Assembly (NCBI GenBank): GCA_964504985.1
Contig: CAZDFU010000003.1
Coordinates: 822 to 64,821 of the forward strand
Direction of reading: 5' to 3'
DNA length: 64,000 bases
Source: an uncultured Gammaproteobacteria bacterium
Lineage (GTDB): Bacteria; Patescibacteriota; Microgenomatia; Daviesbacterales; UBA10151
The position numbers and the translations under genes are program-made. Below, one piece after another: positions 18,268 to 56,789 of this stretch. Under the pieces are notes generated by a model. It was not told where the DNA came from and ran no database searches. It saw nothing but the letters and a program-made list of their open reading frames with translations. Each line of letters begins with the position of its first letter. The first letter of the stretch is position 1.

Positions 18268-18349
18268 AAAATTTAATGTGGTTTTGTTGGCTTAAGGATT
18301 AAGTCAAATACCCTAGGTGTCAAGCTAGTCCACCTCCCAGGTGGGATTC
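18268..18349 (+). repeat. Short palindromic repeat family 1, copy A (tgtggttttg...ccctaggtgtcaagctagtccacctcccaggtgggatt)
   Basis: Shares an 80-bp similarity block with 19821-19910 and core with 33931-33998 and 47701-47768. Contains hairpin CCACCT-CCC-AGGTGG. Confidence 0.7.
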
Positions 18350-18352
18350 TTG

Positions 18353-19885
18353 TTACAGGCTGTTTAATTTGGTGGCCAGGGAATCTTGTTCTTCATTTAG
18401 CTTTTCATCCTGCTTAACCATTTGATTTTCTGCCTCAGTTAACCACACATTTGCCTCAAGTTTAGAAATAACAGCGGAGGCTATATTTATTCTTTGGGAA
18501 ATAATTTCGTTCATCCTATCAATATCTCTTTTATTTTTACTGTAAAAATCTGGATATTCTTTTAAATTTGCCCAATTAGGTTGAATACTTTTTAAGTCAC
18601 TTAATAATTTTTTCCAGGGGTTGATAGTTTCCTGGTCATAATTTGGTGGGACATAGCCTGCTAAATGTCCAACTACTATTTGGGCTGGGCAGCCATTCAG
18701 CTGCCCCTCAACTTCTGCAATACCTATATCCTGAAAATCCTGGTTTAATAGGAATTTTTTTGAGTCTGGGAATGAGAATTGATTTTCTATTAATTCCTCT
18801 GCTTCATAATAGCCTAAAGCAGATGTTTCCCCATAAGTAATATTGGAATACCCTGCATCTGAGAGGGCTTTTTTCATGGTATAACCACTTCTGGTGGCCT
18901 CAAAAGAGAGGTCATTATATTTAAGGCTTATTTTGCCTCTGCTGGCAGCTGATGTTTCAAGTCTGGTCTGATATCTTAAGGGACCGGCACCTGCTTCTCT
19001 TCTTTTTTGGTTTAATAATTCTAAATAACGGTTTTTATCCAGCTTAATTTTTGAGATTTCTTCAAGATCTTTGTCAGTTTTTCTCCAATTTTTATCTAGT
19101 GTGTCTTTTTGTTTTTTCAAAGGGATAACATGGTCTATATCTTTAAACTCTATCAGACCCAGTGTGTGCCTTGAATCCCCGCTTCCCTTTCTATTGTCCC
19201 CCATAACAAATAATTTTCCAGCAGGAACTGTCAGGCTTTTGCAGTCAGCTAAAAACTCTCCCCCAAAAGTAGACCTGGCTTTAAAAATATATGGTTCTTT
19301 TTGAGGCTTACCATTTAAAAGTAATACCCCGTCTTTTATTTCTAATGTATCTGCAGGCAGTGCAATAACTCTTTTAACAAAACCTCTTGGTTTATCCCCG
19401 TCTTTGGTAGTTATTTCTGCTGTTTTAAAATTATAAAAAGAGACTATATCCCCTCTTTCTATTTCATAAGAAAATAATTTATATCCAAATAAATTAAGAC
19501 CAGAAGGATACCTCATCATTCCAGTAGTGCCTACTATTTCCTTTGATTGTTCCTCTGGGGTTTTGCCTTCACCTTTGGGAAAAGTGGGATACATTGACCC
19601 AGTTCCTGACAGTGGGATATAATCTTCCACCAGGTTTAATTTGTCCAATACTAAAAAAGCAGTTAATTTATATGAACTAATCCAAACAGGTACCAAAATC
19701 AAGAGGGTTATTAGGGCAAGAAAGGGCAGAAGAAATCTTTTTACAATTAAATATCCAATTGTTACAAAACTAAAATATTTTTTCATGAACTTACTAATAA
19801 TATAATAATTTATTGTGGTTTTGATGGGTTTTGCTATCCTTAGTCCTAGGGATACAGAAATTTCCCTAGGTGTCAACCTGGGCAC
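18353..19885 (-). CDS. Signal peptidase I fused to C-terminal CAP/SCP (YkwD-like) domain
   Basis: N-terminal TM. SGSMYPTF (box B Ser), KRVIALPADTL (box D Lys), GDNRKGSGDSR (box E). C-terminal half LLNQKRREAGAGPL...YGETSALGYYEAEELIENQFSFPDSKKFLLNQDFQDIGIAEVEG resembles CAP/PR-1 domain. Confidence 0.6.
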   Translation of the reverse strand: MPRLTPREISVSLGLRIAKPIKTTINYYIISKFMKKYFSFVTIGYLIVKRFLLPFLALITLLILVPVWISSYKLTAFLVLDKLNLVEDYIPLSGTGSMYPTFPKGEGKTPEEQSKEIVGTTGMMRYPSGLNLFGYKLFSYEIERGDIVSFYNFKTAEITTKDGDKPRGFVKRVIALPADTLEIKDGVLLLNGKPQKEPYIFKARSTFGGEFLADCKSLTVPAGKLFVMGDNRKGSGDSRHTLGLIEFKDIDHVIPLKKQKDTLDKNWRKTDKDLEEISKIKLDKNRYLELLNQKRREAGAGPLRYQTRLETSAASRGKISLKYNDLSFEATRSGYTMKKALSDAGYSNITYGETSALGYYEAEELIENQFSFPDSKKFLLNQDFQDIGIAEVEGQLNGCPAQIVVGHLAGYVPPNYDQETINPWKKLLSDLKSIQPNWANLKEYPDFYSKNKRDIDRMNEIISQRINIASAVISKLEANVWLTEAENQMVKQDEKLNEEQDSLATKLNSL

Positions 19886-19910
19886 CTCCCAGGTGGGATT
19901 TACCGTTTAA
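19821..19910 (+). repeat. Short palindromic repeat family 1, copy B
   Basis: tgtggttttgatgg...gaaatttccctaggtgtcaacctgggcacctcccaggtgggattt. Overlaps the last codons of the 176-aa ORF. Confidence 0.7.
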
Positions 19911-20430
19911 GGTCTGCAGGGGCTCTTAGGTATGGATTGTTTTCCAGATGACTGGAATTATTTGCAGAATTTTGAACCTGGGGAGGGTTTTCTTTAAAAA
20001 CCCCTATCCCCTCTATTACACCAAGGGTTTGTTGGTTTCCTGGCTGGGTAGTTAAATCCTGGGAAATTGTGGCTACTTCTTTGTTGGTAGAACTTACTGA
20101 AGGCAATTGTTTTATTAAGGAGATGGTTTCTTCCCTGTTTTGCCAGGCAAGTAATTTACTTTCATCTTCAGCTACTTCTCCCATTTTTTCTTCAAGGTTT
20201 GTTAAAGGAACATCTATTTCTCCTCTTTCCACAATATCCCCTAAAATATCTCCTGCATTGGCAATATGTTCAAAAGGCAGGCCTGCTAAAGCATAAGCCT
20301 TGATGGTATTAACATATTGGGTATAATTTTGTTGTTGGGAAGTTATTTTAAATGATTTCGCCCTGGTTAAAGGATGGGATGATTGTGAACTCAAAAGATC
20401 ATTCTTTGGGGCAGTTAAATTATTATGCAT
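19900..20430 (-). CDS. Hypothetical protein (176 aa); C-terminal residues encoded by repeat copy B
   Basis: ORF; no motif; final ~4 codons lie within the repeat. Confidence 0.4.
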   Translation of the reverse strand: MHNNLTAPKNDLLSSQSSHPLTRAKSFKITSQQQNYTQYVNTIKAYALAGLPFEHIANAGDILGDIVERGEIDVPLTNLEEKMGEVAEDESKLLAWQNREETISLIKQLPSVSSTNKEVATISQDLTTQPGNQQTLGVIEGIGVFKENPPQVQNSANNSSHLENNPYLRAPADLKR

Positions 20431-24602: not shown

Positions 24603-24603
24603 C

Positions 24604-25491
24604 ATGGATTTATCAATAATAATACTAAGCTATAATACAAAAGATATTACCGGTCAATGTTTACTGAAGTTAAAGAGTGCTGTAGACAGTTTACAAAAGA
24701 AAACAGGCAATAATGCAGAGGTCATTGTTTTGGATAATGCTTCATCAGACGGATCTGTTGAAATGATTAAAACCAATTACCCCTGGGTTCAGCTAATTGA
24801 ATCAAAAGAAAATACAGGGTTTTCCAGGGGCAATAATTTAGCATTTAAAAAAACCAGATACCCCAATATTTTATTTTTAAACTCTGATGTTTATGTTGGC
24901 GAGGATACATTAATTAAAAGTTTGGAATATTTTAAAAATCATGGTTGTAATGTCTTGGGAGTTAGGCTTGTTTTTGAAAATGGAAAATTCCAACCCTCGG
25001 CCGGAAATTTACCAACACCAATTAATACTATTTTTTGGATATTAGGATTTGGACAACTGTTTAACCCATTTCATCCTAAAAGTGAGAATTTTTTTTCCCA
25101 GGAAAGAGAAGTAGGTTGGATTATGGGAGCATTTTTTATGATTAAAAGAGAAACTTTTATCAGTGCTGGTGGATTTGATGAGAATATTTTTATGTATATG
25201 GATGAGATTGATCTTTGCAAAAGGGTTTCAGATCTGGGTTTTAAGATCTGCTATGCCCCAGTTACTGAGGCAGTCCATCTGCACAGGGCCAGCAGCAAGG
25301 ATAATCCTGAGAAAGCCTTTACATTGGAGCTTAAGGGTATGAAGGTTTATCTTAAAAAATATCATGGATCCTGGTATCAGGTAATTAAATTATTTTTGAT
25401 CCTTGGGTTGGTTTTAAGAGTGATTGCTTTTTCCTTGTTTGGAAGAACAGCTAGAGCTAGGGCTTATATTGAAGGACTAAAAGAAGTATGA
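24604..25491 (+). CDS. Family 2 glycosyltransferase
   Basis: SIIILSYNTKD...VLDNASSDGS; overlapping start with upstream GT. Confidence 0.8.
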   Translation: MDLSIIILSYNTKDITGQCLLKLKSAVDSLQKKTGNNAEVIVLDNASSDGSVEMIKTNYPWVQLIESKENTGFSRGNNLAFKKTRYPNILFLNSDVYVGEDTLIKSLEYFKNHGCNVLGVRLVFENGKFQPSAGNLPTPINTIFWILGFGQLFNPFHPKSENFFSQEREVGWIMGAFFMIKRETFISAGGFDENIFMYMDEIDLCKRVSDLGFKICYAPVTEAVHLHRASSKDNPEKAFTLELKGMKVYLKKYHGSWYQVIKLFLILGLVLRVIAFSLFGRTARARAYIEGLKEV

Positions 25492-27269
25492 AAATTGCAA
25501 TTATTACACTTAATTACAATGGTAAAGAAGATACTTTGGAGTTACTAAATTCTTTAAAAAAACTAAGATCTAAAATCTATGATCTTAAAACTATAGTAGT
25601 GGATAATGCTTCAGAAGATGGAAGCGTGGGCGCTATTCACAAGGCTTTCCCTGAAGTAGATATTCTCCAGACAGGAGAAAATTTAGGCTTTGGACAGGGA
25701 TATAATAAAGGTTTTGAATATGCCAAAATCTGGGGGCCTGACTATTACTTGCTGATAAACAATGACTCAAAAATAGAAGACCCTAAACTTTTAGATAAGT
25801 TGCTGCAGGTATTTAAAAAAGATCCAAAAATTGGGATGGTTGCTCCTAAGATTTTATTTGAAAAGGGGTTTGAGTTTCATAAAGACAGGTACTCAAGTGA
25901 TGATTTAGGAAAAGTTATATGGTATGGGGGTGGTTTTATGGATTGGAATAATATACGCTCAGTTCACAGGGGCATAGATGAAGTTGATAGGGGTCAGTAT
26001 TCAGAAGTGGAAGAAGTGGGTTTTATCAGTGGTGCCTGTTTTTTAATTAAAAAAGAAGTTTTAGAAAAAGTTGGTGGATTCAGTGGAGATTATTTTCTAT
26101 ATTTTGAGGATGCCCAATTTTGTAAAAAAGTTTTAGAAGCAGGATATAAGTTATATTACTGCGGGCAAACTGTAATCAACCATAAAGTATCCCGTTCCAC
26201 AGGCATTGGTTCCAGCTTAACTGATTATTACCATACCAGGAATAGGCTTATTTTTGGCATGAAATATGGAAGGTTTAGGGCAAAGTTTGCCCTGGTTAGA
26301 GAAGCTATCAAGTTGTTGCTTATTGGCAGGCCTGCCCAAAGAAAAGGATTACTGGATTTTTATCTGGGAATAAGAGGAAAAGGAGAAGAGTCCCCAGGTG
26401 TCCCAACCGTGTATCCGTTAAAACTGTCCATTGGAATTGTTAATTATAAAACAGCCCAATTAACAAAAAAACTACTGGAAAGTATCTTTAAAAAAGATTC
26501 AGGATTTGATTCCAAAACAATGGAAGTTATAGTTTTGGACAATGGGTCAGAAGATAATTGTAAAGAAGCTATAAAAGAATTTTTGCCCAGGATAAAATAT
26601 CTGGAAAATAAAGAAAATGAAGGGTTTAGCAGAGGTTATAATAAAACCATAAACTTCTCTTTGGGTAAACATTATTTAATGTTTAACTCTGATATTGAAG
26701 TATTACCAGGCAGCTTATCTGAAATCCTTAAGGCAGCAGAGCATTTTGAGGGAAAGGCAGTTTTATCTGGGAAACTATTTTTTCCAGATAAAACAGATCA
26801 GGATTCTGTCTATCACTTGCCTACCCTTTCTGGCGCTTTTGATGAATATTTCTTAGGTAAGAATGGATCTTATTTTATGTACCTGCCTCGCCATAAGGCG
26901 GGTCAGCCAAAGTCTGAAGAATATACAAAAGTAGAAGGAGCAGTAATGGCTTGTTTTTTGATACCAAAATATATTTTAAATAAAGTAGGGCTTTTGGATG
27001 AGCAGACTTTTATTTATTTTGAGGATATAGAATATTGCAGGCGTTTAAAAAAGTTTGGATTCCCTGTTTATTTTGTACCTTCTGCCCATTTTATTCATCA
27101 CCATGGTGCTTCATCTAAAACTATAGGAGTTGATAAATCCCAGGCTCTTTTACAAAAAGCAGCCAGGCATTACCATGGAGGTTTTTATTATTTTCTCCTC
27201 TCCTGGGTATTGAGGTTAGGCCAGAAATTTGGCAGGGTTCAAACCCCTGTATCAAGGTGGACTAAATAA
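25488..27269 (+). CDS. Tandem double family 2 glycosyltransferase (two GT-A domains, 593 aa)
   Basis: N-terminal IAIITLNYNGKEDT...VVDNASEDGS and second LSIGIVNYKTAQ...VLDNGSEDN with downstream DxD-like motifs. Confidence 0.75.
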   Translation: MKIAIITLNYNGKEDTLELLNSLKKLRSKIYDLKTIVVDNASEDGSVGAIHKAFPEVDILQTGENLGFGQGYNKGFEYAKIWGPDYYLLINNDSKIEDPKLLDKLLQVFKKDPKIGMVAPKILFEKGFEFHKDRYSSDDLGKVIWYGGGFMDWNNIRSVHRGIDEVDRGQYSEVEEVGFISGACFLIKKEVLEKVGGFSGDYFLYFEDAQFCKKVLEAGYKLYYCGQTVINHKVSRSTGIGSSLTDYYHTRNRLIFGMKYGRFRAKFALVREAIKLLLIGRPAQRKGLLDFYLGIRGKGEESPGVPTVYPLKLSIGIVNYKTAQLTKKLLESIFKKDSGFDSKTMEVIVLDNGSEDNCKEAIKEFLPRIKYLENKENEGFSRGYNKTINFSLGKHYLMFNSDIEVLPGSLSEILKAAEHFEGKAVLSGKLFFPDKTDQDSVYHLPTLSGAFDEYFLGKNGSYFMYLPRHKAGQPKSEEYTKVEGAVMACFLIPKYILNKVGLLDEQTFIYFEDIEYCRRLKKFGFPVYFVPSAHFIHHHGASSKTIGVDKSQALLQKAARHYHGGFYYFLLSWVLRLGQKFGRVQTPVSRWTK

Positions 27270-27573: not shown

Positions 27574-27822
27574 ATGTCCAAACAAAAAGGTGCAATTGTA
27601 CCTTTAGTTTTAATTATAATCATTATTATCCTGGCTGTTTTAGCTTTTATATTTATATCACAAAATAAGTTCAATCAAACTAATGAGTCAAAATCTCCCC
27701 AAACAGCTGCCGGTTCAAGTTATCTTAAAGAACAATATCAGAACCCTTTTGAAGAAAAAAGCCAATATGAAAATCCATTCTCAGAAGATTCTTACCAGAA
27801 TCCTTTTGATAACCTTAAATGA
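27574..27822 (+). CDS. Small single-TM protein with Q-Y-x-NPF tripeptide repeats (82 aa)
   Basis: N-terminal TM then QYQNPFEEKSQYENPFSEDSYQNPF; stop overlaps next start. Confidence 0.45.
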   Translation: MSKQKGAIVPLVLIIIIIILAVLAFIFISQNKFNQTNESKSPQTAAGSSYLKEQYQNPFEEKSQYENPFSEDSYQNPFDNLK

Positions 27823-29012
27823 TTAAAATATTTAAAATTACCAGGACTGGGGTTGTGGCTTTTTTGGCAGCCTTAATTTTGAGTTTTATCTTTGTTTCTT
27901 TAACTTATGCACATGAAGGTGAAGACCATGAAGAAGAAAACCCTGAACAGGCGGCTAAAAAATATAATCTAACTTTTCCTATAACAGAACTTGGGGGATG
28001 TCAAAATTATGCAGCCTGCAGGTCTTATTGTGAGTCTGAGGCTAATAGGGATCAGTGTACTTCCTATGCCAAGAAAAAGGGATTCTACCAGGAGAGAAGA
28101 AAAGAAGAAGGAATAATTAATGAAGCTAAATCCCAGTTAGGTTGTGATTCAGAATCCTCCTGCAGGGCTGTTTGTGAGAAAGAAGAAAATATTGAAAAGT
28201 GTTCTGCATTTGCCCAAAAGCATAATTTAGGGGGGCCCAGAGGAAAGCCGGGTGATAGGAATATATTACAAAAAGCCAAAGAAATTTTGGGATGTGATTC
28301 AGAGCAGTCTTGCAGGTCAGTTTGTGAGAATCCTGCCAACCAGGACAAATGTTCTACTTTTGCTGCTCAAACTGGTTTAGGTGGAGGGGTTAGAAGGGTT
28401 GGGCCTGGAGGGTGTAATTCTGAAGAAAGCTGCAGGAGTTTTTGTGAGAAAAATATTGATGAATGCAGAAAGTTTGGAGGAGGGCCCCCTGAGGGGTATG
28501 ATAGTGGCAGAAAAGGTCCTGGCGGGTGTAATTCTGAGGAGTCTTGTAATGCTTATTGTCAGTCTAATCCAGAAGAGTGTGCAAAATTAGGAGGAGGTAC
28601 TGGAAATTTTGGAGGAGGAAGAAGGGGTCCTGGAGGGTGTGATAGTGAGGAATCTTGTAGAAGATATTGTGAGGCAAATCCTAAAGAATGTGGTATTGGT
28701 GAAAGAGGTGTTAGAGATCAAAGAGAGGGTTTTGAAAGAGAAGGAAGAAGGGATTTTAGACCTGAGAATAATCAGAGACCAACAGAAAATTATCAAAGAG
28801 AAGAATTTAGGTCTTCCCAGGAGTACCAAAGACCAGTTGAGGATCAGTACCAGCAGCCTCAAACATATGAACTCCCCAGACAAGACACTCAGCCTGCTGA
28901 ATCTTTTCAAAGGGAATCATCATCAGATACTTTCACTAATACAACCCAAGAAGTTAGAGGGGCTTCAACAGGAAGAAATCTATTCCAACAAATCTTAGAT
29001 TTCTTGTTTTAG
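27819..29012 (+). CDS. Secreted/anchored protein with six tandem ~45-aa four-cysteine repeats and Q/E/R-rich tail
   Basis: N-terminal hydrophobic segment. Repeats G-C-[DN]-S-E-x-S-C-R-x-x-C-E-x(5,6)-C-x-x-[FY] occurring six times. Confidence 0.6.
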   Translation: MIKIFKITRTGVVAFLAALILSFIFVSLTYAHEGEDHEEENPEQAAKKYNLTFPITELGGCQNYAACRSYCESEANRDQCTSYAKKKGFYQERRKEEGIINEAKSQLGCDSESSCRAVCEKEENIEKCSAFAQKHNLGGPRGKPGDRNILQKAKEILGCDSEQSCRSVCENPANQDKCSTFAAQTGLGGGVRRVGPGGCNSEESCRSFCEKNIDECRKFGGGPPEGYDSGRKGPGGCNSEESCNAYCQSNPEECAKLGGGTGNFGGGRRGPGGCDSEESCRRYCEANPKECGIGERGVRDQREGFEREGRRDFRPENNQRPTENYQREEFRSSQEYQRPVEDQYQQPQTYELPRQDTQPAESFQRESSSDTFTNTTQEVRGASTGRNLFQQILDFLF

Positions 29013-33589: not shown

Positions 33590-34010
33590 CGATTATTGAG
33601 GCATCTGTCCGGAGGGAAGGATTCCCTTCGACTACGCTCAGGGTAAACTGCTCATCCCTCTGATAATATTCGTCTCGTACGCTCGCATTGAGCGAGCTTG
33701 CGAGCCGAAATGTCCGGAGGGAAGGATTCGCACCTTCGCAGGGAAAACCCGGTAGATTTACAGTCTACTGCAATTGACTACTCTGCCACCTCCGGTATGC
33801 CTTATTATATCTTAGGCAAATTGATTGGACAACTTTTAAAATATACTTCTGCGGACTGTAAGTCCTTGAAGATCCCGGTTGTAACCGGGGATCCGCGATA
33901 AACTTTGTTCATCGGGACTGTAATTAAATTAAAATTTCCCTAGGTGCCTGCTCGCCTCGCTCGACGCGAGTCGAAGCGGGCCTAATCCACCCCCCAGGTG
34001 AACAAAGATA
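33590..34010. ncRNA. Candidate structured non-coding RNA region (unassigned family)
   Basis: ~870-bp gene-free interval. Locally GC-rich in an AT-rich genome. Direct repeat of tgtccggagggaaggattc at 33605 and 33709. Perfect hairpin gctcgc-attga-gcgagc. Contains repeat family 1 variant at its 3' end. Confidence 0.35.
33931..33998 (+). repeat. Short palindromic repeat family 1, copy C (variant with 34-nt GC-rich insertion)
   Basis: aaatttccctaggtg...ccaccccccaggtg. Confidence 0.5.
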
Positions 34011-34174
34011 GCCCTATATACTCCTGATGTTTGGGTATCTTCAAGGCGCCAAACAGCTGTTGATTTAGTTAGGAATCCTTCCATGAAAGTTTTTAAAACT
34101 GTAGCCTCAAAAATCCCCAATAGAGCACTGCAGGCAATCGCTTGAACATTAAAAAACTGTTATAATCCCTTAAT

Positions 34175-37458: not shown

Positions 37459-39123
37459 TTAGGTTTCCAAATCAACTTCCATTACTGCCGCCCTTTTTTC
37501 TATCCCTAATTTATTTAAAATTCTTAAATGAACTTCAGCCAAGTGCCCAATTTGTTTTCCATTTTTTTCTAACCTTAAAATCCTTTTAGGGTGAAAAAGT
37601 TCAGTTTGAACCATGCCTCCACCCCCGAGGTGTAAGCTCAAAGTTTTAGCAATATTGGCCAGTTCCTCTATTGGGTTGTCTGTATTATTCATTAAAGCAA
37701 TAGACAAATGATATTTTTCTATTGGTTGTTCCTGCTTTTTTGAGTAAGTTTTCCCTATTTCAAATATCCCAATATCTTTATATCCTTGTCTTATATTTTT
37801 TCCAACTATTTCTACCAGATTAGGCCAAAGATTATCTCTTAAATATTCCGTTTCCTTAGAAATAGGATTAGATATTTTAATTAAGTCCTTTTTATCCTTT
37901 GTTAAACTGGTTAAAATATCAGTAGAATAATATGCATATGTTTGAACCTCAGTCAGCCCTGCCTCATATAGAGCCTGTTTAAGGTTCTGTATAAGCCTAA
38001 AAAAGGGGTTTTGGCGGTGGTCTGGTATATTCACCTCAGCAGGATGTTTGGAGGGGATTTTTTCATATCCATACATTCTGGCTACTTCTTCAATTACATC
38101 TTCCTCGATGTTTATATCCAATCTCCACAGCGGTACTGTAACTTCCCAATTGAGGTTCCCGCTTGACGGGTGGGAAACCATTTTAAAGCCTAAGGATTCT
38201 AAAGAGGATTTTACAATTTGCTCAGGTATTTCTATCCCAATTAAGGAATTAACTTTTTCTTGATTTAAAACAATAGTTTTAGGTTTGTCTTCAAGATTAC
38301 CTGTTAAAGTAAGAGCTGTTAATTTTCCGCCCAGACTTTCATACATCTTTATTGCAGCAGAAAGCGATTGGAGCAAATTTGTTTTTGTTAAGCCATGCTG
38401 GAATCTTTTGGATGCTTCTGAATAAAGTCCCAGCCTTTGGCTGGTTTTTCTTAAGGATATTGGGTCAAAAATAGCTGCTTCCAAAAAAATAGAGGTGGTA
38501 GTCTCTGAAACTTCACTCATTTTTCCTCCCATCACTCCGGCAATTCCAATCGGACCTTTTTCATCTGTAATTAATAAATCGTTTTCAGAAAGCTCCCTGA
38601 TTTTATTATCCAGTGTGGTAATCTTTTCCCCATCTCTAGCAACCCTTACTACTACAGCCCCTTGTACTTTTTCAGCATCAAAAGCATGCATAGGCTGTCC
38701 AAATTCCAGCATACATAAATTAGTTATATCTGCCACATTACTGATAGATCTTATTCCGCAAGACTGAAGTTTTTCATTCCATTCAGAAGGAGAAGGGTTA
38801 ACTTTTAGTTTTTCTATTTTTGCCAGGCAGTATACCGGTGCTAAAGCAGCATCTTCTACTTCAACTGCCACTTCTGAAAGGGTGGGAATTTGCCACTTTT
38901 CCATTGTAAAGTTGACAGGAGAATTTGTAACGGCTGAAATTTCTTTTGCTGCTCCTCTCATAGATAAAAGATCAGCCCGGTTGTAGCCTTTCATATCCAG
39001 TTCAAAATAATCTCTAGAAACTTCTTTTAAGCCAATAGTGCGGAGGGGTAAAAGCCTGATAAGTTCCTCAACAGAAACCTTTAAATCCACCAATTCTTTT
39101 AACCAGTTAATACTTATTTTCAT
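37459..39123 (-). CDS. pheT: Phenylalanyl-tRNA synthetase beta subunit (short form)
   Basis: 554 aa. B3/4 and B5 domain similarity, catalytic-like core; translationally coupled to pheS (overlap). Confidence 0.8.
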   Translation of the reverse strand: MKISINWLKELVDLKVSVEELIRLLPLRTIGLKEVSRDYFELDMKGYNRADLLSMRGAAKEISAVTNSPVNFTMEKWQIPTLSEVAVEVEDAALAPVYCLAKIEKLKVNPSPSEWNEKLQSCGIRSISNVADITNLCMLEFGQPMHAFDAEKVQGAVVVRVARDGEKITTLDNKIRELSENDLLITDEKGPIGIAGVMGGKMSEVSETTTSIFLEAAIFDPISLRKTSQRLGLYSEASKRFQHGLTKTNLLQSLSAAIKMYESLGGKLTALTLTGNLEDKPKTIVLNQEKVNSLIGIEIPEQIVKSSLESLGFKMVSHPSSGNLNWEVTVPLWRLDINIEEDVIEEVARMYGYEKIPSKHPAEVNIPDHRQNPFFRLIQNLKQALYEAGLTEVQTYAYYSTDILTSLTKDKKDLIKISNPISKETEYLRDNLWPNLVEIVGKNIRQGYKDIGIFEIGKTYSKKQEQPIEKYHLSIALMNNTDNPIEELANIAKTLSLHLGGGGMVQTELFHPKRILRLEKNGKQIGHLAEVHLRILNKLGIEKRAAVMEVDLET

Positions 39124-40166
39124 ATTTTTTGCAGGAACCTTAAGTCCCCACTTTTAAACGCACGGATATCTTCTACTCCATATTTGAGCATAGCCATTCT
39201 TTCAGGCCCGGCTCCCCAGGCAATACCAGAATAAACATTGGGATCAATTCCACCATTTTTTAATACAGCAGGGTGAATCATGCCAGCTCCAGCCAGTTCC
39301 AGCCATCCCATTCCTCCACAAACCTTACAGCCCTTACCTTTACAAAAGATGCAAAGCCCATCAACCCCTGCTCCTGGTTCTACAAAAGGGTAATATTTTG
39401 GCCTAAGCCTGGCTTTAATATCCTTACCCAGAATTCCTTGGAAAAAGTACTCAGACAAATATTGTAAATTAGCCATACTGACCCCTTTATCTATATATAT
39501 AATTTCAAACTGATCAAGGGTATGTTCATGCCTGGCATCAACAGCCTCATACCTGAAGCAGCGGTCAATGATCATCATCCTGATTGGAGGTTTAAACTCC
39601 TTCATAATTCTTATCTGAGCATTTGAGGTATGAGTTCTAAGAAGAAGTTCCCCGGGGGTAGATTTAAGGTTGGAAGTATCTATATAAAGTGTATCCCAAA
39701 GGTCTCTGGCAGGGTGGCCTTTGGGAATGTTCAACAGCTCAAAATTATATTCTTCACTGTCTATATGAGGGGCATCATACAAACTAAAACCTAATTTAGC
39801 AAACAACTTAACAATTTCATTTTCCAGCTTGGTAACAGGGTGCAGGTGGCCTTCTCTTTTTTTAGCCTGCAACCTCGAAGGTTGCAGCACAAATGTTTCA
39901 TTTTCCAGCTTTTTATAGCTTTCTTCCCTCAGATCCAGGCGCCCTTTTTCTATGGCTTGTTCCAGCTCTGCTTTGGTTTTATTAAAAAGCGGACCGATTT
40001 TTTTCTTTTCATCAGAGGAGAGTTTGAAAAACTGTTTTGGTAAAAGTGTTATTTCACCTTTTTTTCCAAAAAGCTCCAGAAAAATTTTATCAAGGTCTTT
40101 TAAAGATTTGGCTTGACGGATTTTTTCCAGGACCCCTTTTCCTATTTGCGAAATTTTATCTTCCAT
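39120..40166 (-). CDS. pheS: Phenylalanyl-tRNA synthetase alpha subunit
   Basis: Class II motifs: GHPARDLWDT (motif 1 region), FRYEAVDARHEHTLDQFE (motif 2), GWLELAGAGMIHP (motif 3). Confidence 0.85.
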   Translation of the reverse strand: MEDKISQIGKGVLEKIRQAKSLKDLDKIFLELFGKKGEITLLPKQFFKLSSDEKKKIGPLFNKTKAELEQAIEKGRLDLREESYKKLENETFVLQPSRLQAKKREGHLHPVTKLENEIVKLFAKLGFSLYDAPHIDSEEYNFELLNIPKGHPARDLWDTLYIDTSNLKSTPGELLLRTHTSNAQIRIMKEFKPPIRMMIIDRCFRYEAVDARHEHTLDQFEIIYIDKGVSMANLQYLSEYFFQGILGKDIKARLRPKYYPFVEPGAGVDGLCIFCKGKGCKVCGGMGWLELAGAGMIHPAVLKNGGIDPNVYSGIAWGAGPERMAMLKYGVEDIRAFKSGDLRFLQKI

Positions 40167-43652: not shown

Positions 43653-43862
43653 TTAAGGCTTAGGTTCCTGTTTTTCAAATACTTCTAGCTTTCCCACATG
43701 GAATGCGGGAGCCTTAAGTTGTTGTGGCGCATCAATTCTATCAGGCAATTCCCGCCTGACAAATTCAGGACTTATTGGATGCCCAAGCTCGCGTGCTCTG
43801 TTGCTCATATCAGAACCAATATATATAAGTCTTTCTGTCATTTTTACCTCCTTTCTTTGCAT
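43653..43862 (-). CDS. Hypothetical small protein (69 aa); C-terminus encoded by repeat family 2 copy
   Basis: ORF; last 14 codons lie in repeat 43686-43719. Confidence 0.3.
   Translation of the reverse strand: MQRKEVKMTERLIYIGSDMSNRARELGHPISPEFVRRELPDRIDAPQQLKAPAFHVGKLEVFEKQEPKP
43686..43719 (+). repeat. Short palindromic repeat family 2, copy A (tagctttcccacatggaatgcgggagccttaagt)
   Basis: Near-identical to 44243-44276; hairpin cccacat-gga-atgtggg. Confidence 0.7.
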
Positions 43863-44242: not shown

Positions 44243-44276
44243 TAGCTTTCCCACATGGAATGTGGGAGCCTCAAGT
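44243..44276 (+). repeat. Short palindromic repeat family 2, copy B
   Basis: tagctttcccacatggaatgtgggagcctcaagt; abuts tRNA-Val. Confidence 0.7.
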
Positions 44277-47130: not shown

Positions 47131-47889
47131 TCAGCCAAATTTTTTAATTGTGTTGTTGTGGGTTTTGTTTTCCAACTCATCATCAAGCGGGGCAAGATTA
47201 ATTTCTTTTCCATATTTTACCTCTAAAGCTTTTTTCAAAAGCCAGTCAGCTAACTTTGGATTTTTAGGTAAAAGTGAACCATGCATATAAGCCCCAATGG
47301 CATTTTTATAAATACAACCTTCTGTTTGATCTTCACCATTATTACCAAAGCCTTTAGACACCAGTCCTAAAGGAGTTGCCCCCTTTTTAAGAAAAGTTTT
47401 ACCTGAATGATTTTCAAAACCAACTAACTTGCCAAACATTGTATCAATAACAATATTCCCAATCATTCTTTGATCAGAAGCTAAGGTATAGGCTGGGAAA
47501 AGTCCAACTCCTTTAAGTCTGGGGCCTTTATGAGGTTGATAATATTCTCCCAATAGTTGATAGCCTCCACAAATAGAAAGCAGAGGTATCCCCCTTTCTA
47601 CTTCTTTTTTAATAAACTTTCCTTTACCAGAAGTTATTAAATCTTTAGCTACCAGCTCTTGTTGTTGATCCTGCCCTCCCCCAAAAAAATATAGGTCTGC
47701 TTTTTGTCCACCTGGGAGGTGTCTACCTAGTCCACCTGGGAGGTGGACTGCGTTGGTACCTAGGGAAATATTAATAATTTTTACTTTAATTCCCCTCCAC
47801 TGGGCACGTTTTTTTAAGGTAATAATATTGCCTGTGTCTCCATAAATATTCATCAAATCACCATATAAATAACCCACAACAATTTTCAA
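47131..47889 (-). CDS. gatD: Lipid II isoglutaminyl synthase glutaminase subunit GatD (CobQ-like GATase); carries an in-frame repeat-element insertion
   Basis: Collinear with S. aureus GatD (IYGDTGNIITLKKRAQWRGIKV..., ICGGYQLLG catalytic Cys, GFENHSG). 13 extra residues HLPGGLGRHLPGG encoded by repeat family 1 copy. Confidence 0.8.
   Translation of the reverse strand: MKIVVGYLYGDLMNIYGDTGNIITLKKRAQWRGIKVKIINISLGTNAVHLPGGLGRHLPGGQKADLYFFGGGQDQQQELVAKDLITSGKGKFIKKEVERGIPLLSICGGYQLLGEYYQPHKGPRLKGVGLFPAYTLASDQRMIGNIVIDTMFGKLVGFENHSGKTFLKKGATPLGLVSKGFGNNGEDQTEGCIYKNAIGAYMHGSLLPKNPKLADWLLKKALEVKYGKEINLAPLDDELENKTHNNTIKKFG
47701..47768 (-). repeat. Short palindromic repeat family 1, copy D (inverted orientation, inside gatD CDS, hairpin arm duplicated)
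   Basis: Minus-strand reads aatatttccctaggtaccaacgcagtccacctcccaggtggactaggtagacacctcccaggtggac. Confidence 0.7.
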
Positions 47890-47893
47890 TTTA

Positions 47894-49207
47894 TTACTCC
47901 TCCTCCCAATAATTTTTTTTAATGTCTGATTTTACCAGTATTCTTTGTAGATCAAGCATGGCTGTATAAGTAGGCAGGATAAATAGCTGCCCTTTTAAGC
48001 CCTTTTGAGCCTCTTTAAGAGCCTTTTTCAGGTTCTCTTCTACCTTTATCTGGTTAATATTAAATCCTGCATATTTGAGCCTGACAGCCATATCATATGC
48101 CCTGGTGCCGGAACAAACAATTTTCAATTCTCCTCTACCGCGGGTTTTCTGATCTTTCACAGAATAGTCTGCGTCTATTTTTAATTTTTCAAACTCCCCA
48201 TCCCAGATCCAGGATACATCTGTTCCATCTGCCAAATTATCATTTAGGGCGAAAAGCAACCTGTCTGCTGGTTTAATCTGCGGGGCAATTGTTTCAAAAA
48301 CCTGGGTAGCACCTGCTGGGTTTTTGATTAGGAAAATATACCCGAAAGGTAATTTTTCTACCCTGCCAAAAGCTGGCTGGTAATTTAAAAGAGAAGAAAT
48401 AATTTTGGCTGCAGAAATGTTTAGGTTAGAGGCACATGCTATGGCAGCTGTAGCATCATATATATGGTAAATACCTGGAATGGGTAGGTTAACAGATAAT
48501 AGTTTATTATTAGTAGGCAGTAGAAAAGAGCTTCCTAAAAGTCCTTTTGTTTTGACTTTTTTTGCTTCAAAATCAGGTTTATACCTTCTTTTTTTCCCTA
48601 TACCCTCCCCTGCTATTTTAGAACCCTCTACCCCAAAAGTTTTAACACGTCCTTTAAAGGCCTCTTTTAGTTTTAAAGTATTGGCATCATCACCATTTAC
48701 CAAAATTATTGTTTCAGGAGAAAGTTTTTTTAATGTCTCACACCACCTTTTAACAATAGTATCTACCTCCCCATACCTGTCCAACTGGTCTCTGAAAATA
48801 TTTAAAAATACCACCATAGCAGGATTCAGTTTAGGAGCAACAGAGTTAAAAGCAGCCTCATCCAACTCCCATATCCCCAGATCATAGTTAAAATTCCCAT
48901 TTGAAATGCGGGAGGCTGAAATTAGGGTTGAGGCTATGCCTCTTTCCAAATTTGAGCCTGTATGGTTTCTGATTACCTTAAGGTTTGATGTTTTGGCAAT
49001 ATGGGCCAGCATTCTGGCTGTGGTGGTTTTACCATTTGTACCAGTGATAATAATATTTTTAGGGATATTAAGACTAAGTTTTTGAACAAGAGAAGGGTCT
49101 ATTTTAAGAGCATATAAACCAGGGGCTGCAGAGCCGCCACTCAACTTTAATTTTCTAACAAAAGAACGGATTAGTTTACCGGCTAAAACTGCAGTGAATG
49201 TTCTCAT
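47894..49207 (-). CDS. murT: Lipid II isoglutaminyl synthase MurT (Mur ligase family + DUF1727)
   Basis: ITGTNGKTTT P-loop, Mur ligase middle domain, adjacent to gatD with 4-nt gap. Confidence 0.8.
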   Translation of the reverse strand: MRTFTAVLAGKLIRSFVRKLKLSGGSAAPGLYALKIDPSLVQKLSLNIPKNIIITGTNGKTTTARMLAHIAKTSNLKVIRNHTGSNLERGIASTLISASRISNGNFNYDLGIWELDEAAFNSVAPKLNPAMVVFLNIFRDQLDRYGEVDTIVKRWCETLKKLSPETIILVNGDDANTLKLKEAFKGRVKTFGVEGSKIAGEGIGKKRRYKPDFEAKKVKTKGLLGSSFLLPTNNKLLSVNLPIPGIYHIYDATAAIACASNLNISAAKIISSLLNYQPAFGRVEKLPFGYIFLIKNPAGATQVFETIAPQIKPADRLLFALNDNLADGTDVSWIWDGEFEKLKIDADYSVKDQKTRGRGELKIVCSGTRAYDMAVRLKYAGFNINQIKVEENLKKALKEAQKGLKGQLFILPTYTAMLDLQRILVKSDIKKNYWEEE

Positions 49208-49950: not shown

Positions 49951-50970
49951 TTAGGGGAGTTTTAAGATCACTTCTGCTAACTTTCTGCTGTTATGTCTGA
50001 ATAGATGCTCCCTGATATGATATATAGCCAGGTGTTCCTTAATTATTTTTGTATGCGGGGCAACTTTCTGGCATTCTTCCAGATCAATTTCCACAGGCTG
50101 CTGTTTATCTTTTTTATAAACTTTTAAAACTTCTTTATCCAAGCCATTGCTGTTTGCCAGCACATAATTTATATGTTTACCTTCCCCTAAATAATAAATA
50201 AAGGCTTTAAGGTAATCTGAGGCTTTAAAGTTATCTGTTTCCCCCATTTTAGTCATCAGATTTAAAACTAAATATACTTTTGCCTTAGATTGTTCTATAG
50301 CTTCTTTAATACCGCTGACTAAAAGGTGTGGCAGGACTGAGGTATATAAGTCTCCTGCTGAGAAAATAACTTTATCTGCTTCAAGTATGGCAGAAATTGC
50401 TTCTGGATTTGGGTCAGCAGCAGTTTCAAAATAAATCCTTGAGATTTTTTGTTTAGGGTTATAATCCTTTTTTTGGGCTCTTAAATCTATATTAGATTCA
50501 CCATTAAGCTCTTTGCCTCCCTCAAGTTTGGCCATCAAATTTAATTCAGAAATACTGACAGGATAAACTCTAGCTTTTATTCTAAAAAGCAGCCTTTCAG
50601 CTTCAACAGCCCTGTCAGGGCCTTTATAAATATGCTCCAGTCTTGCTGCTATCAAATTCCCTAAAGCATGTCCTTTTAGAGGACTTCTCATATTATCCAT
50701 CCTGTCATCAAAAAGTTTTTGGGCAACCTGACGCTGTTTGGGGTCCCCCATCAGGGCCAATAGGCACTGCCTGATATCCCCAGGGGGTAAAACACCAAGC
50801 TCTGTTCTTAATCTGCCAGAAGATCCTCCAGAGTCCCAGGTTCCTACAACAGCAGTAATAAGTTCTGGTTTGTTTAGTTCAACCAAACCTCTAAGAAGTG
50901 AAAAGTGGCCAGTTCCTCCACCCAGGGTGACAATTTTTTGGGCAAAAGGATGCTTTGTATTTGCTGCCAT
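49951..50970 (-). CDS. yvcK: Gluconeogenesis factor / YvcK-CofD family (UPF0052)
   Basis: KIVTLGGGTGHFSLLRGL...TAVVGTWDSGGSSGRLR. Start set at ATG 50970 (MAANTK) because the longer ORF would overlap a tRNA. Confidence 0.8.
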   Translation of the reverse strand: MAANTKHPFAQKIVTLGGGTGHFSLLRGLVELNKPELITAVVGTWDSGGSSGRLRTELGVLPPGDIRQCLLALMGDPKQRQVAQKLFDDRMDNMRSPLKGHALGNLIAARLEHIYKGPDRAVEAERLLFRIKARVYPVSISELNLMAKLEGGKELNGESNIDLRAQKKDYNPKQKISRIYFETAADPNPEAISAILEADKVIFSAGDLYTSVLPHLLVSGIKEAIEQSKAKVYLVLNLMTKMGETDNFKASDYLKAFIYYLGEGKHINYVLANSNGLDKEVLKVYKKDKQQPVEIDLEECQKVAPHTKIIKEHLAIYHIREHLFRHNSRKLAEVILKLP

Positions 50971-51019
50971 TTGAAGAATTATATCACTTTTTCTGCTAAA
51001 ATATGCTTGGGTCAAAAAT

Positions 51020-51103
51020 GCCCCGATGCTGGAACTGGTAGACAGGCTGGCCTCAGAAGCTAGTGCCAGAAATGGCGTGGGAGTTCGAATCTCCCTTGGG
51101 GCA
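51020..51103 (+). tRNA. tRNA-Leu (anticodon CAG), class II
   Basis: GCCCCGATGCTGGAACTGGTAGACAGGCTGGCCTCAGAAGCTAGTGCCAGAAATGGCGTGGGAGTTCGAATCTCCCTTGGGGCA. Confidence 0.85.
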
Positions 51104-51212
51104 CCCAATTTTAACTAATCAACCTCAGAACTATCCTTAAATTAAATGTAAGTAGGCTTACAAACTTTTTGTAACTTATCTGACAGAAGGTATCAGCCAA
51201 AAAAGGTATCCT

Positions 51213-53654: not shown

Positions 53655-56600
53655 ATGTACAAAGGAAAAATGAAAAAAATATTTCAAAAACTAATATACA
53701 TTTTTGCTGCAGCCTTAATTGTTTTTTACCAGGTTGCGCCTATTGGTTTCTCCCTCAGTACAGTTTTGGCAAAAGATGGCGAGGAAGAAGTTGCTTCTGA
53801 AAATAAAACTGATAACTCAGGTTCCAGTTCAAATGGAGATTCTCAGCCTGAAAGTAATTCATCCGGATCAGGTTCATCTGGGTCTGGTTCATCTGGCAGT
53901 TCTGGGTCTGGCAGCGGATCTTCCGAACCCGCTCCCCAACCTGCAACAACAGAACCTGTACCTGTTGCCACTAATAATGAAGCCGTTCAACAGGAAACTG
54001 CACCAGTAAATATTGTTCAAGAGCAAACCGCACCAGTTAATGCTGTGGAAGTACCGGAAATAATTGCTCCTGTGGTACCTGTAACAAATGAGGTTGAGGA
54101 TGTGAAAAACGGCGGGGTTATTAAAGATGCACCTGGTGATACAGTGAGGCCAACAGATCCAGTGGTAACAACAGAGGCTCAAGCAGGAGCTCTGGCCCCA
54201 GAGACTGCACCGCAAGATCCCATCCCTGCCCAGGCAGACACTTTAGTTGAACCTGTAGAACCCGCCGTAGAAACAGTTACTTCTGCAGTAAACACCATAA
54301 CCGGGCCAGTAGAAACAAGCATTAATACAACATCTGTGAGCAGCCCAACAAGCATTGCTGGTGTAGTTGATCAGGTAAATGGTTTTCCGTCTGCTTATCA
54401 AGACAAATTAGGCATAGCTGTTATCCCCTGCCTTGATGGATCAGACCCTAATTGTGTCTTGCCAGGAGCAGGTGAAGAAGAAGGGTTTGATCCTTCCCAA
54501 CCAACTGCTTTAGGTACTAACTTTCCATCAGAATTTTTCTACTGGATTGCAGAATCTGAACCATTAACTACTCCAAATGGAGGTAAAACTTTTATCAGGA
54601 CAGCTTTAGAAGGAGCCTTCCTGAATGAAGAACCAATCTCAACAGATCAGATGGTCTTTGGCAGAATCAGAGTAACAGGCACAGGTTTAGAACCAAACTC
54701 TACCTACATTGTCACCCATCCTTATGGAATTGATACTTACAAAACAAATGATGTAGGTATTATTGCAAGAGGAGAAGGAACAGAAGATATTGGTTGTGAG
54801 GTCAAGCCTTGTGACTTTACTAAAGCATTAGATAGCAGAATCTTTGATGGGTTCCTACAAATGTCTGAAGGTGCACCAGTTGGTTATCTCGGTGATGCAG
54901 CAACAGCAGCAGAAGTAACAGGAAGTCCTTTAGGCCAAAATTCTTATAGAATTGAAGGCCCAGGTTTACCATTAGGAGGTTTGTTTACCAACCTTTTCAC
55001 TGTAGCAGGTAAATTACTTTCTGGCCTTATTACCCCAATTTCTGTGGAAATCCCAGCTAACCAGCCAGCTCCTGTTAATGAGCAAAATGGAGCGGCGGGT
55101 CCAATTGATGATTCAAATGGGTTTCCTGCATCTTACCAGGATCTTTTGGGTACAACTGTTATCCCCTGCCTTGATGGATCAGACCCTAATTGTGTCTTGC
55201 CAGGAGCAGGTGAAGAAGAAGGGTTTGATCCTTCCCAACCAACTGCTTTAGGTACTAACTTTCCATCAGAATTTTTCTACTGGATTGCAGAATCTGAACC
55301 ATTAACTACTCCAAATGGAGGTAAAACTTTTATCAGGACAGCTTTAGAAGGAGCCTTCCTGAATGAAGAACCAATCTCAACAGATCAGATGGTCTTTGGC
55401 AGAATCAGAGTAACAGGCACAGGTTTAGAACCAAACTCTACCTACATTGTCACCCATCCTTATGGAATTGATACTTACAAAACAAATGATGTAGGTATTA
55501 TTGCAAGAGGAGAAGGAACAGAAGATATTGGTTGTGAGGTCAAGCCTTGTGACTTTACTAAAGCATTAGATAGCAGAATCTTCCAGAGTTTACTGGAATG
55601 GGATGTCCCTCTGCTTAATGGTTATCTGGGTGATGCTATAACTCCACACACTGTTATGGGAAGCCCAACAGGAAACAACTTCTTCAGAATAGAAGGACCA
55701 GGATTGCCTATTGGGGGACTATTAACTAACCTCTTTACAGTAGCAGGAAAATTAGCAGGAGCTATAGGAGGGGTAGTTGATAATATTTTACCAACAGAAG
55801 AGCCTGTTATAGAGGAAGGAACAACTGCTGAGGAAGATATGGTAGAGCCAATTATGGATACAGACCCAGCAGATGAACTTATAGCAGAGGATCTACTTGT
55901 TGGAGGACCTACCGCTGAGGAGGGAACAGGAGAAGACCCAATTAATGAGGCTGAAGATACTCCTGATGCAGAAATTGAAACTCCTGTGGCAACTGAGGAT
56001 ACAGTTAATGAACCCGTGGGGGAGGTAGTAGTTTCCCCTGCTAATGAAGATGAGCAAGAAACAAATGAAGAAGAGCAAGAATCAGAAGAAACAGAAGAAC
56101 CAGAAGCACCAGTTACTGTTATTCCTGGAAATGAAGATGAGGTAGAAGATAATAATGGGACTAATACTGAGGAAGAGGTTATTCAAGAAGAGATTATTCA
56201 AACAGTAGAAACTATCCTTGCAGATCCACTTGACCAGCTTCTTAACACAAACAGCCAGGAAGAAGCATCAGAGCAAGTAACTGCTTTTCTTCAACCAGCT
56301 ATTGTTGAGGCAATAAATAACCAAGCAAACACAACTGAAGATAATACTGTTTTAGCAAGTAATAATTCCTCAGCTGCACAAACAAACAACACCACATCTG
56401 AGTCTGCTGCCAGCTCAAATAATAATTCCAGCTCAGTATCAAATAATACTAGCAGTCAATCATCAAGCTCAGATAATAACCAATCATCTGGTTCAACTAA
56501 CCAGTCATCTGGCGGGATTGAGGCAGGACAAAAAACTAGTGCAGAGGAGGCAAAAACTGGAGAAGAAAATAAAACTCAGGTATTGTCAGTACAAATTTCC

Positions 56601-56789
56601 CAAACCGCAGAAGATAACTCATCTGAGATTTTTGAACAAGCTGAACAGCCTGAGCAACCAGAACAATCAGATTCAAGTGAAGTAACCTCAGAAGAAAAAG
56701 AAGCAGGGAAAAATCCTATAGGCATAGTTTTAGCTCTAACCGGCTTAGCTATCGCAGGAGGGTTTTTCTCCAGACGCTTTATTGTCTAA
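53655..56789 (+). CDS. Large secreted/surface protein (1044 aa) with S/G-rich and acidic low-complexity regions, internally duplicated 142-aa module, C-terminal hydrophobic anchor
   Basis: N-terminal signal/TM. SGSGSSGSGSSG linker. Two identical copies of VIPCLDGSDPNCVLPGAGEEEGFDPSQ...CEVKPCDFTKALDSRIF. C-terminal LALTGLAIAGGFFSRRFIV. Confidence 0.7.
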   Translation: MYKGKMKKIFQKLIYIFAAALIVFYQVAPIGFSLSTVLAKDGEEEVASENKTDNSGSSSNGDSQPESNSSGSGSSGSGSSGSSGSGSGSSEPAPQPATTEPVPVATNNEAVQQETAPVNIVQEQTAPVNAVEVPEIIAPVVPVTNEVEDVKNGGVIKDAPGDTVRPTDPVVTTEAQAGALAPETAPQDPIPAQADTLVEPVEPAVETVTSAVNTITGPVETSINTTSVSSPTSIAGVVDQVNGFPSAYQDKLGIAVIPCLDGSDPNCVLPGAGEEEGFDPSQPTALGTNFPSEFFYWIAESEPLTTPNGGKTFIRTALEGAFLNEEPISTDQMVFGRIRVTGTGLEPNSTYIVTHPYGIDTYKTNDVGIIARGEGTEDIGCEVKPCDFTKALDSRIFDGFLQMSEGAPVGYLGDAATAAEVTGSPLGQNSYRIEGPGLPLGGLFTNLFTVAGKLLSGLITPISVEIPANQPAPVNEQNGAAGPIDDSNGFPASYQDLLGTTVIPCLDGSDPNCVLPGAGEEEGFDPSQPTALGTNFPSEFFYWIAESEPLTTPNGGKTFIRTALEGAFLNEEPISTDQMVFGRIRVTGTGLEPNSTYIVTHPYGIDTYKTNDVGIIARGEGTEDIGCEVKPCDFTKALDSRIFQSLLEWDVPLLNGYLGDAITPHTVMGSPTGNNFFRIEGPGLPIGGLLTNLFTVAGKLAGAIGGVVDNILPTEEPVIEEGTTAEEDMVEPIMDTDPADELIAEDLLVGGPTAEEGTGEDPINEAEDTPDAEIETPVATEDTVNEPVGEVVVSPANEDEQETNEEEQESEETEEPEAPVTVIPGNEDEVEDNNGTNTEEEVIQEEIIQTVETILADPLDQLLNTNSQEEASEQVTAFLQPAIVEAINNQANTTEDNTVLASNNSSAAQTNNTTSESAASSNNNSSSVSNNTSSQSSSSDNNQSSGSTNQSSGGIEAGQKTSAEEAKTGEENKTQVLSVQISQTAEDNSSEIFEQAEQPEQPEQSDSSEVTSEEKEAGKNPIGIVLALTGLAIAGGFFSRRFIV
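54418..55582 (+). repeat. Perfect 427-bp direct tandem duplication (units 54418-54844 and 55156-55582, period 738 bp) within the surface-protein gene
   Basis: Line-by-line identical DNA between the two units. Confidence 0.85.

Follow-up and report, generated by a model that had tools for sequence, protein, structure and literature searches.

A REP-like palindromic element within gatD of a Daviesbacteria genome, probably an intragenic copy of a dispersed repeat tied in relatives to a RAYT-like transposase

The REP (repetitive extragenic palindromic) elements and REPINs of Pseudomonas and E. coli, together with the REP-associated tyrosine transposases (RAYTs), constitute a system of short GC-rich palindromes that are dispersed, mostly intergenic and situated just downstream of genes, with inverted copies flanking the gene for a Y1 HUH transposase and with intragenic copies on record that add residues to the protein and are considered neutral (PMC3116915, PMC3337134, PMC3733652). 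All these features recur, in one genome or in its relatives, for an element that we describe here from gatD, the gene for the glutamine amidotransferase subunit of lipid II isoglutaminyl synthase, in a 64-kb stretch (about 37% GC; hereinafter the window) of the Daviesbacteria contig CAZDFU010000003.1. The gatD repeat is a short GC-rich hairpin scattered through the ultra-small genomes of Daviesbacteria, members of the Candidate Phyla Radiation (CPR), and the segment within gatD is probably a copy, lodged inside a gene, of a REP-like palindromic element dispersed in Microgenomates (CPR) bacteria. In relatives the element is tied to a RAYT-like Y1 transposase, by which it would be mobilised. Unlike the described REPs, it has no unpaired GTAG or CGTC tag but instead a conserved 13-nt arm, TAGCTTGRCACCT, with an apparent -35 box; its full-length copy is one hairpin nested between two arms, not two REPs and a spacer; its transposase falls under the NCBIfam cut-off for RAYTs; and its hosts are ultra-small CPR genomes. 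Our literature search found no paper that joins RAYT or REPIN with CPR names.

Intragenic REPs occur in several species, so the phenomenon as such is already known; the Rickettsia palindromic elements (RPEs) RPE-4 and RPE-6 are short and have been equated with REPs of the CGTC type, for which no dedicated transposase is known, whereas RPE-1, compared with REP-type units, is a 'longer palindromic insertion' (PMC3733652). What is new here is the lineage, the architecture of the element and the linked transposase. Like the RPEs, the palindrome occupies, in reading frame, positions that the protein fold can accommodate in essential genes of a small, AT-rich genome, the gatD copy being such an insertion in a functional gene; it differs in its CPR host, in its unit of 42–63 nt, which is shorter than RPE-1 (roughly 100–150 bp, encoding tens of residues), and in its linked candidate transposase. 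The Correia (NEMIS) elements of Neisseria are likewise small repeats able to bring promoter-like hexamers beside genes; they measure 100–150 bp, end in inverted repeats and duplicate a TA target. No target duplication was found at the flanks of the gatD copies or of the intergenic copies A and B listed below. Since terminal repeats with target duplication are not seen, the right comparison is with REP/RAYT-type elements and their intragenic copies, including RPE-4 and RPE-6, and not with Correia-type miniature inverted-repeat transposable elements; the original prediction, made from the letters of the window alone, had invoked both Rickettsia and Correia elements, and only the first likeness, that to the REP-type RPEs, survives. 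IS200/IS605 insertion sequences and their gene-less derivatives (palindrome-associated transposable elements, PATEs) also combine a Y1 HUH transposase (PF01797) with sub-terminal hairpins at both ends, and their chemistry is expected on single-stranded DNA; here, unlike in these, the gene occurs once per contig, the hairpin units are dispersed alone, no tnpB adjoins the transposase gene at the loci examined, and the protein has ~225 aa (about 130–150 aa in IS200 TnpA). The GC clusters of yeast mitochondria are comparable as GC-rich palindromic mini-elements of an AT-rich compact genome, with an optional in-frame copy in var1, but they belong to an organelle, are unrelated in sequence and have no Y1 transposase.

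The host gene and the parts of its insert, in coordinates of the window, are as follows.

47131..47889, minus strand: gatD, glutamine amidotransferase subunit of lipid II isoglutaminyl synthase, 252 aa, TTG start, host of the repeat
47707..47769, plus strand (antisense to gatD): the whole REP-like insert, recognised by repeat count, covariance model and family alignment; minus-strand translation SLGTNAVHLPGGLGRHLPGG
47707..47722, plus strand: first copy of the 16-mer GTCCACCTGGGAGGTG, hairpin CCACCT GGG AGGTG
47729..47749, plus strand: perfect hairpin AGTCCACCT GGG AGGTGGACT, 9-bp stem and 3-nt loop, holding the second 16-mer
47750..47769, plus strand: diverged arm GCGTTGGTACCTAGGGAAAT (family consensus TAGCTTGACACCTAGGGAAAT), from the family and cmsearch alignments

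gatD is the sole long open reading frame (ORF) spanning the repeat site and lies 4 nt downstream of a 437-aa MurT-like ORF, with murT immediately upstream. Homologs of its product fall in PF07685 and are annotated as glutamine amidotransferase or lipid II isoglutaminyl synthase, those with a taxon name coming nearly all from Candidatus Daviesbacteria. With a GATase_3 fold, a catalytic Cys and an adjoining murT, the protein is a GatD: it matches Staphylococcus aureus GatD (5n9m, 6gs2) with E = 3e-48, retains the ICGGYQ motif with the active-site Cys, and has every invariant column of a 54-sequence alignment, this Cys included. The predicted in-frame translation is borne out, for a single 252-aa ORF runs across the site and no stop falls within the insert, which reads HLPGGLGRHLPGG in the context ...NISLGTNAVHLPGGLGRHLPGGQKADLYFFGGG... 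The net gain is 12 residues over both the modal 240-aa orthologs and S. aureus GatD, and 8 residues (24 nt) over the nearest relatives, in which one hairpin is already present; the repeat-derived stretch is wider and extends over the codons for SLGTNAV. The extra residues had been rightly foreseen, but not their number, which had been put at 13.

An AlphaFold model of this GatD, built from 54 homologs, has a mean predicted local distance difference test (pLDDT) score of 87.8 and superposes on chain A of 6gs2 with a template-modelling (TM) score of 0.85. Its sole stretch with pLDDT below 50 comprises residues 49–60 (HLPGGLGRHLPG), modelled as a loop between strands 35–41 and 66–69, in keeping with the surface loop to which the segment had been assigned. 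The published interface of GatD with MurT is formed by helices alpha2 and alpha7 and the beta13-alpha6 loop (PMC6113224), and in the model the insert-bearing loop is not among these contact elements. With all the invariant residues intact, the extra peptide would be a tolerated, disordered passenger, and we infer that the insert is most likely neutral for GatD itself.

The family to which the insert belongs was delineated by scanning metagenome contigs for GGTGNNNTAGCTTGRCACCT (the hairpin's 3' half together with the arm), which returned at least 120 stretches; all counts of metagenome copies below are among the matches listed. The unit, abundant on low-GC metagenome contigs and in related genomes, measures ~42 nt and consists of a 6–9-bp GC-rich hairpin with a CACC/GGTG core, followed by the conserved arm (N)TAGCTTGRCACCT and often by AGGGAAT, and in full-length copies the arm stands on both sides of the hairpin. 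On low-GC contigs almost every match has the complementary CACC upstream. Across 90 copies the stem-loop (6–9-bp stem, 3–5-nt loop) has 83% of its cells paired, and the stem covaries (pair 12-16: UA 38, CG 29, UG 16; pair 7-21: CG 46, AU 14) with a score that 0 of 500 shuffles reached. A covariance model (R1) built from these 90 metagenome copies, with no sequence from the window, recovers the gatD site on both strands at 20–22 bits (E ~1e-4; ~2e-4 over the full length, ~5e-5 for the hairpin) along with the three intergenic copies of the window, and one family alignment takes in the gatD, intergenic and transposase-flanking copies; the claim that gatD harbors a member of the repeat family is upheld on both counts. 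Of 127 copies, about 85 do not fall within a long ORF and, where genes converge, a stop codon is found ≤8 nt from the arm in 20 of 42 cases, most copies being intergenic and packed against stop codons. The family is thus a small palindromic stem-loop unit in many dispersed copies, mainly extragenic and downstream of genes, as are REPs, whose palindromic units are 20–40 bp in size. One class of copies is followed by CTTTTT, which bears on a possible role as terminators; where one arm is missing, this T-run stands ~20 nt away from the inner hairpin. A phage origin was considered and rejected: the single match on a viral contig (61% GC, without the hairpin) is due to chance. Further, three or more complete REP-like units (TTCCACCTTCCAGGTGGAATAGCTTG...) stand in tandem on one metagenome contig (L188, about 630–710).

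Within the window, the 15-mer CCACCTGGGAGGTGG occurs 6 times with ≤2 mismatches against 0.06 expected from shuffles, and three further copies lie outside gatD, all intergenic and on the minus strand, making four copies in the 64 kb.

18306..18350, minus strand: intergenic copy A, 6–8 nt past the stop of ORF 18353–19885, between convergent genes
19856..19900, minus strand: intergenic copy B, directly after the stop codon of ORF 19900–20430
33933..34003, minus strand: intergenic copy C, between tRNA-Tyr and a PBP1-like gene, with its arm split

Each of these combines the hairpin with an arm whose end reads CACCTAGGG(A/T)AT; the downstream arm TTGACACCTAGGG is complete in copies A and B and split in C, leaving GCACCTAGGG. 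By the covariance model, copy A is the best family match of the window (56.7 bits, E = 3e-16), and copy B scores 18.6 bits (E = 5e-4). The arm of copy C is broken at 33947–33982 by a 34–36-nt insert of ~74% GC (GGCCCGCTTCGACTCGCGTCGAGCGAGGCGAGCAGG), the halves of which recur in the Daviesbacteria loci L014, L099 and L200 and in the gatD gene of L042; possibly this is a third small element. Across copy C runs a spurious 63-aa ORF (33929–34120).

On the plus strand the gatD insert is laid out as GTCCACCTGGGAGGTG TCTACCTA GTCCACCTGGGAGGTG GACTGCGTTGGTACCTAGGGAAAT, the exact 16-mer being found at 47707–47722 and again at 47731–47746 with a 24-nt period, while the diverged arm encodes ISLGTNA on the gatD strand. 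The gatD of the window accordingly has one hairpin, or one arm, more than that of its nearest relatives, and this doubling fits two readings. The first is a tandem duplication of the hairpin, as had been predicted; for it speak the exact identity of the two 16-mers and the small tandem duplications that the nearest relatives have beside their own hairpin, and duplicated distal arms are found in 9 of 83 copies and also at the ends of the transposase gene. The second is a full two-armed element, in which the first 16-mer, read on the gatD strand, doubles as a second outer arm, ACTAGGTAGACACCT; here the 24-nt period equals the CACCT-to-CACCT spacing of full-length copies, a 14-mer within 47707–47722, TAGGTAGACACCTC, is identical to the arm of an in-frame murT copy in locus L041, and the predicted fold of the sense RNA pairs 47707–47722, as outer arm, with the CCCUAGGU arm. 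The tandem duplication of the original prediction is one of two ways to account for the doubled 16-mer. The second hairpin copy might also be an assembly artefact of a metagenome-assembled genome, the exact GatD protein being known from one contig only. Yet the extra 24 nt keep both frame and fold, other in-frame expansions occur at exactly this site in independent assemblies (P0002, P0004, P0022), duplicated hairpins or arms recur in the family, and a 24-nt repeat fits inside a single read, which makes collapse or expansion harder; we regard an artefact as barely credible.

The link to a transposase comes from relatives. Nineteen metagenome copies lie 18–43 nt (most 25–30) upstream of the start of a gene for a ~225-aa protein, and just past the stop of this gene the inverted unit AGGTG(C/T)CAACGTAA plus hairpin is present at 15 of 15 loci. 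The protein begins with MPTNRK..EIYH(V/I)FNRG and contains CLMPNHFHFL and SRYIHLNP, so that the HUH (NHFH) and RYIHLNP motifs are visible, and as an IS200-like transposase it matches Pfam Y1_Tnp (PF01797) at 31–35 bits against a cut-off of 23. Its family has 3203 homologs at E ≤ 1e-10, the named ones being from Daviesbacteria, Levybacteria and Blackburnbacteria. Starting from the protein, we recovered the same architecture at two loci, the complete Daviesbacteria chromosome CP066688.1 and JACPEY01; in CP066688.1 a flanking copy and a dispersed copy 60–70 kb away have in common a genome-specific core, CACCTGGGGGGTGTCCCAGCTTGACACCTA. Relatives thus have a Y1 gene between inverted repeat copies, as in a REPtron. 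Upstream of this gene (at L104, L152, L086, L141, L205 and L206) the TTGACA of the upstream arm is followed by TAnnnT at 17±1 nt and by an ATG 5–10 nt later, and the start has no Shine-Dalgarno sequence; judged by this spacing, the TTGACA looks like the -35 box of a transposase promoter with a leaderless message, and dispersed copies could carry this box beside other genes. That every copy is a sigma-70 promoter was rejected: TAnnnT at 17±1 nt with a start codon is consistent only before the transposase gene, and the layout fails at copies A and B and in gatD.

gatD is not the only coding sequence with the element. Full two-armed copies occur in the murT loop (NLERGIAS..LI to GIWELDE) at loci L001, L021, L030, L041, L015, L040 and L008, where they read G(V/A)(N/K)L.H.(P/W)GGL(N/G/R)(R/W)HLG, in the same frame as the window's LGTNAVHLPGGLGRHL, and on metagenome contigs the coding sequences that hold an in-frame copy include those of a GT28 (MurG-type) protein, a class II aminoacyl-tRNA synthetase and a membrane protein, and a fragment of recO. 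The clearly coding copies (gatD, murT, murG, class II aminoacyl-tRNA synthetase, recO) are all in the frame G-(V/A)-K-L-x-H-x-P-G-G. It is conceivable, and we put it forward tentatively, that Microgenomates possess an old, largely vertical REP-RAYT-like system whose units, furnished with the transposase promoter box, have repeatedly colonised, expanded in and been exchanged between the surface loops of essential cell-wall and housekeeping enzymes (MurT, GatD, MurG, aminoacyl-tRNA synthetase, RecO). The MurT loop, at about 48870–48925 of the window and ~1 kb upstream of gatD in L001–L060, is hypervariable in Daviesbacteria (26 to 42 residues) and contains REP-like copies, other perfect hairpins (with stems of 15 bp in L003 and 19 bp in L011) or tandem repeats of 7 nt (AACTACC, CCCTTTA, CCCTAnA). 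A different site of this kind may be the hairpin CTGCAACC TCGA AGGTTGCAG at 39867–39887, which is coding, inside ORF 39120–40166; orthologs of this ORF in L024, L002, L054 and L026 retain one at these codons, its stem being different (GCAACC or CCACCT), so the site is either another conserved or a recurrent intragenic hairpin site.

For the gatD site we compared 120 close GatD homologs and 80 genomic loci at the protein and DNA level. The modal ortholog has 240 aa and a short loop (e.g., NISIGDKLKKGEVDIFFFGGG), and the segment is missing from most Daviesbacteria GatDs and from all outgroups, namely Roizmanbacteria, Chloroflexi and Firmicutes, which have the short form. A subset of Daviesbacteria has a single-hairpin version of +4 aa, against +12 aa in the genome of the window: in L001, L002, L011, L017 and L081–L083 the DNA reads CCCTAGGTG(C/T)CAAGCTAnn plus hairpin and aligns base for base with the intergenic copies of the window. 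The ortholog check proposed with the original prediction speaks in its favour, and the opposite outcome, that all relatives would carry the segment with no likeness to the intergenic copies, is not what we find. The insertion is partly shared: several relatives have the one-hairpin version, and what is specific here is the second hairpin (24 nt) alone. Other genomes have at the same place a different hairpin, TTCCCACAT CCG ATGTGGGAA, read as IPTSDVGT, whose family is also present in the window at 43686 and 44243 and, decayed, in murT at 48889. The copies of this second hairpin family (TAGCTTTCCCACATGGAATGYGGGAGCCTYAAGT) span 43686–43719, 44243–44276 and 48889–48922; one of them abuts the 3' end of tRNA-Val, and the decayed one is in-frame in the murT loop (ISASRISNGNFNY).

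These orthologs bear on whether the hairpin is a selected cis-acting signal of the murT-gatD operon, in DNA or mRNA, that would act in pausing, attenuation or mRNA stability and so tune the subunit ratio. Strong hairpins at fixed loop positions in murT and gatD of many Daviesbacteria, together with the covarying stems and the fold of the 78-nt sense RNA (-23.8 kcal/mol, z = -2.4), speak for such a signal. But the gatD hairpin is missing from most orthologs, close sisters among them; these sites are occupied by hairpins of several sequence families unrelated to each other, or by 7-nt tandem repeats instead; and the same unit is found after stop codons, beside tRNA genes and in unrelated genes. 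Nor does any Rfam family match: at the gathering score Rfam found tRNAs only, and at E ≤ 10 just chance-level matches over the gatD site, by which a known RNA family for the element was rejected. We consider a cis-acting signal very unlikely.

Several observations weigh against an intragenic copy of a mobile REP-like element, and the first of them favour an origin in place, in which the palindrome arose by template switching or slippage, followed by duplication and gene conversion with other copies and with no transposase. The unit has ~42 nt, while the single-hairpin alleles are just 12 nt longer than the empty ones, so that native gatD codons must have been replaced, which simple insertion does not explain. 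In L023 (5943–5967) the gatD loop holds a perfect 11-bp palindrome, ATATCACACCC GGG GGGTGTGATAT, at unchanged loop length, with the native G-C-D-I codons as its right arm; this looks like template-switch conversion rather than insertion and suggests that palindrome formation in situ at least contributes. Local tandem duplications also stand beside the hairpin in L081 (GGTGTGCAA twice) and L082 (CTCCC(TGC)AGGTGAG twice), and the exact 16-mer repeat of the window looks recent. Further, filled, empty and several distinct empty alleles are scattered over the MurT+GatD tree, even within the tight sister pairs L006/L009, L008/L003 and L023/L032; the neighbour-joining trees, built for GatD and for MurT+GatD, leave the crown unresolved, and with the scatter of alleles they do not fix the number and direction of events. 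Counting gains and losses on them was dropped, as repeated gain and loss is inseparable there from recombination. As to the element itself, no unpaired GTAG or CGTC tag was found, the 5' flank having no consensus and the 3' flank reading nTAGCTTGRCACCT, with GTAG occurring only incidentally in the second arm of the window's copy. As to the enzyme, the only NCBIfam match is REP_Tyr_transpos, at 47.2 bits against the RAYT cut-off of 80; neither the 64-kb window nor any of the 80 gatD loci has a homolog of the transposase, so the link for this genome rests on relatives; and to our knowledge transposition or cleavage has been shown for no CPR protein.

Against an origin in place, in turn, stands the conservation of the arm TAGCTTGRCACCT over very many unrelated loci and genomes, where it also flanks the Y1 gene in inverted orientation, and the presence of the same unit in the same frame in five different genes. 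Moreover, the empty alleles are, save a few outliers, no closer to the element than shuffled sequence, which leaves little homology to prime conversion; homology-guided replacement was rejected on this ground. Origin in place is plausible for the last 24-nt step only, and as an account of the whole segment we find it unlikely.

For the intragenic-copy reading we envisage the following course. A RAYT-like transposase would mobilise single-stranded copies of the hairpin, and only those landing in an open frame, where an essential gene encodes a permissive surface loop, would survive there. In some lineage of Daviesbacteria a one-hairpin copy may have entered gatD in the loop that joins core strands two and three, taking the place of some native loop residues (net +4 aa). 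In the genome of the window a second hairpin or second arm would then have been added (+24 nt), whether by slippage or conversion at the hairpin or by acquisition of the full two-armed form.

Elsewhere in the window, other repeats and a gene-boundary conflict were noted. The tandem ORFs 23670–24602, 24604–25491 and 25488–27269 have in common two diverged repeat blocks (a 61-nt block four times, a 51-nt block three times, 64–73% identity) at ~870–940-nt spacing, which suggests that the ORFs of 23670–27269 are tandem paralogs, putatively glycosyltransferase-like by inspection. ORF 27819–29012 contains repeated modules of ~110–150 nt at 28137–28690 with Cys-rich segments (GPGGCNSEESC...C..YC), and the 1044-aa ORF 53655–56789 a 300-nt direct repeat of 92% identity (54357–54656 and 55095–55394). 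The tRNA-Leu(CAG) at 51019–51107 is overlapped by the 5' end of the mechanically called ORF 49951–51108, so the true start of this gene lies further downstream.

CPR genomes are usually seen as streamlined and poor in mobile DNA. If widespread in Microgenomates, a REP/RAYT-like system would change this picture for the group, because essential peptidoglycan enzymes acquire additional peptide loops from it; if true, a selfish hairpin would rank among the main sources of variation in protein length for some of the smallest bacterial genomes known. The hairpins explain the length polymorphism of gatD and murT, can mislead gene callers, as with the spurious ORF over copy C, and are natural strain-typing markers in groundwater metagenomes. 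With filled and empty alleles among close relatives, they offer a testable case of selfish hairpins creating protein insertions.

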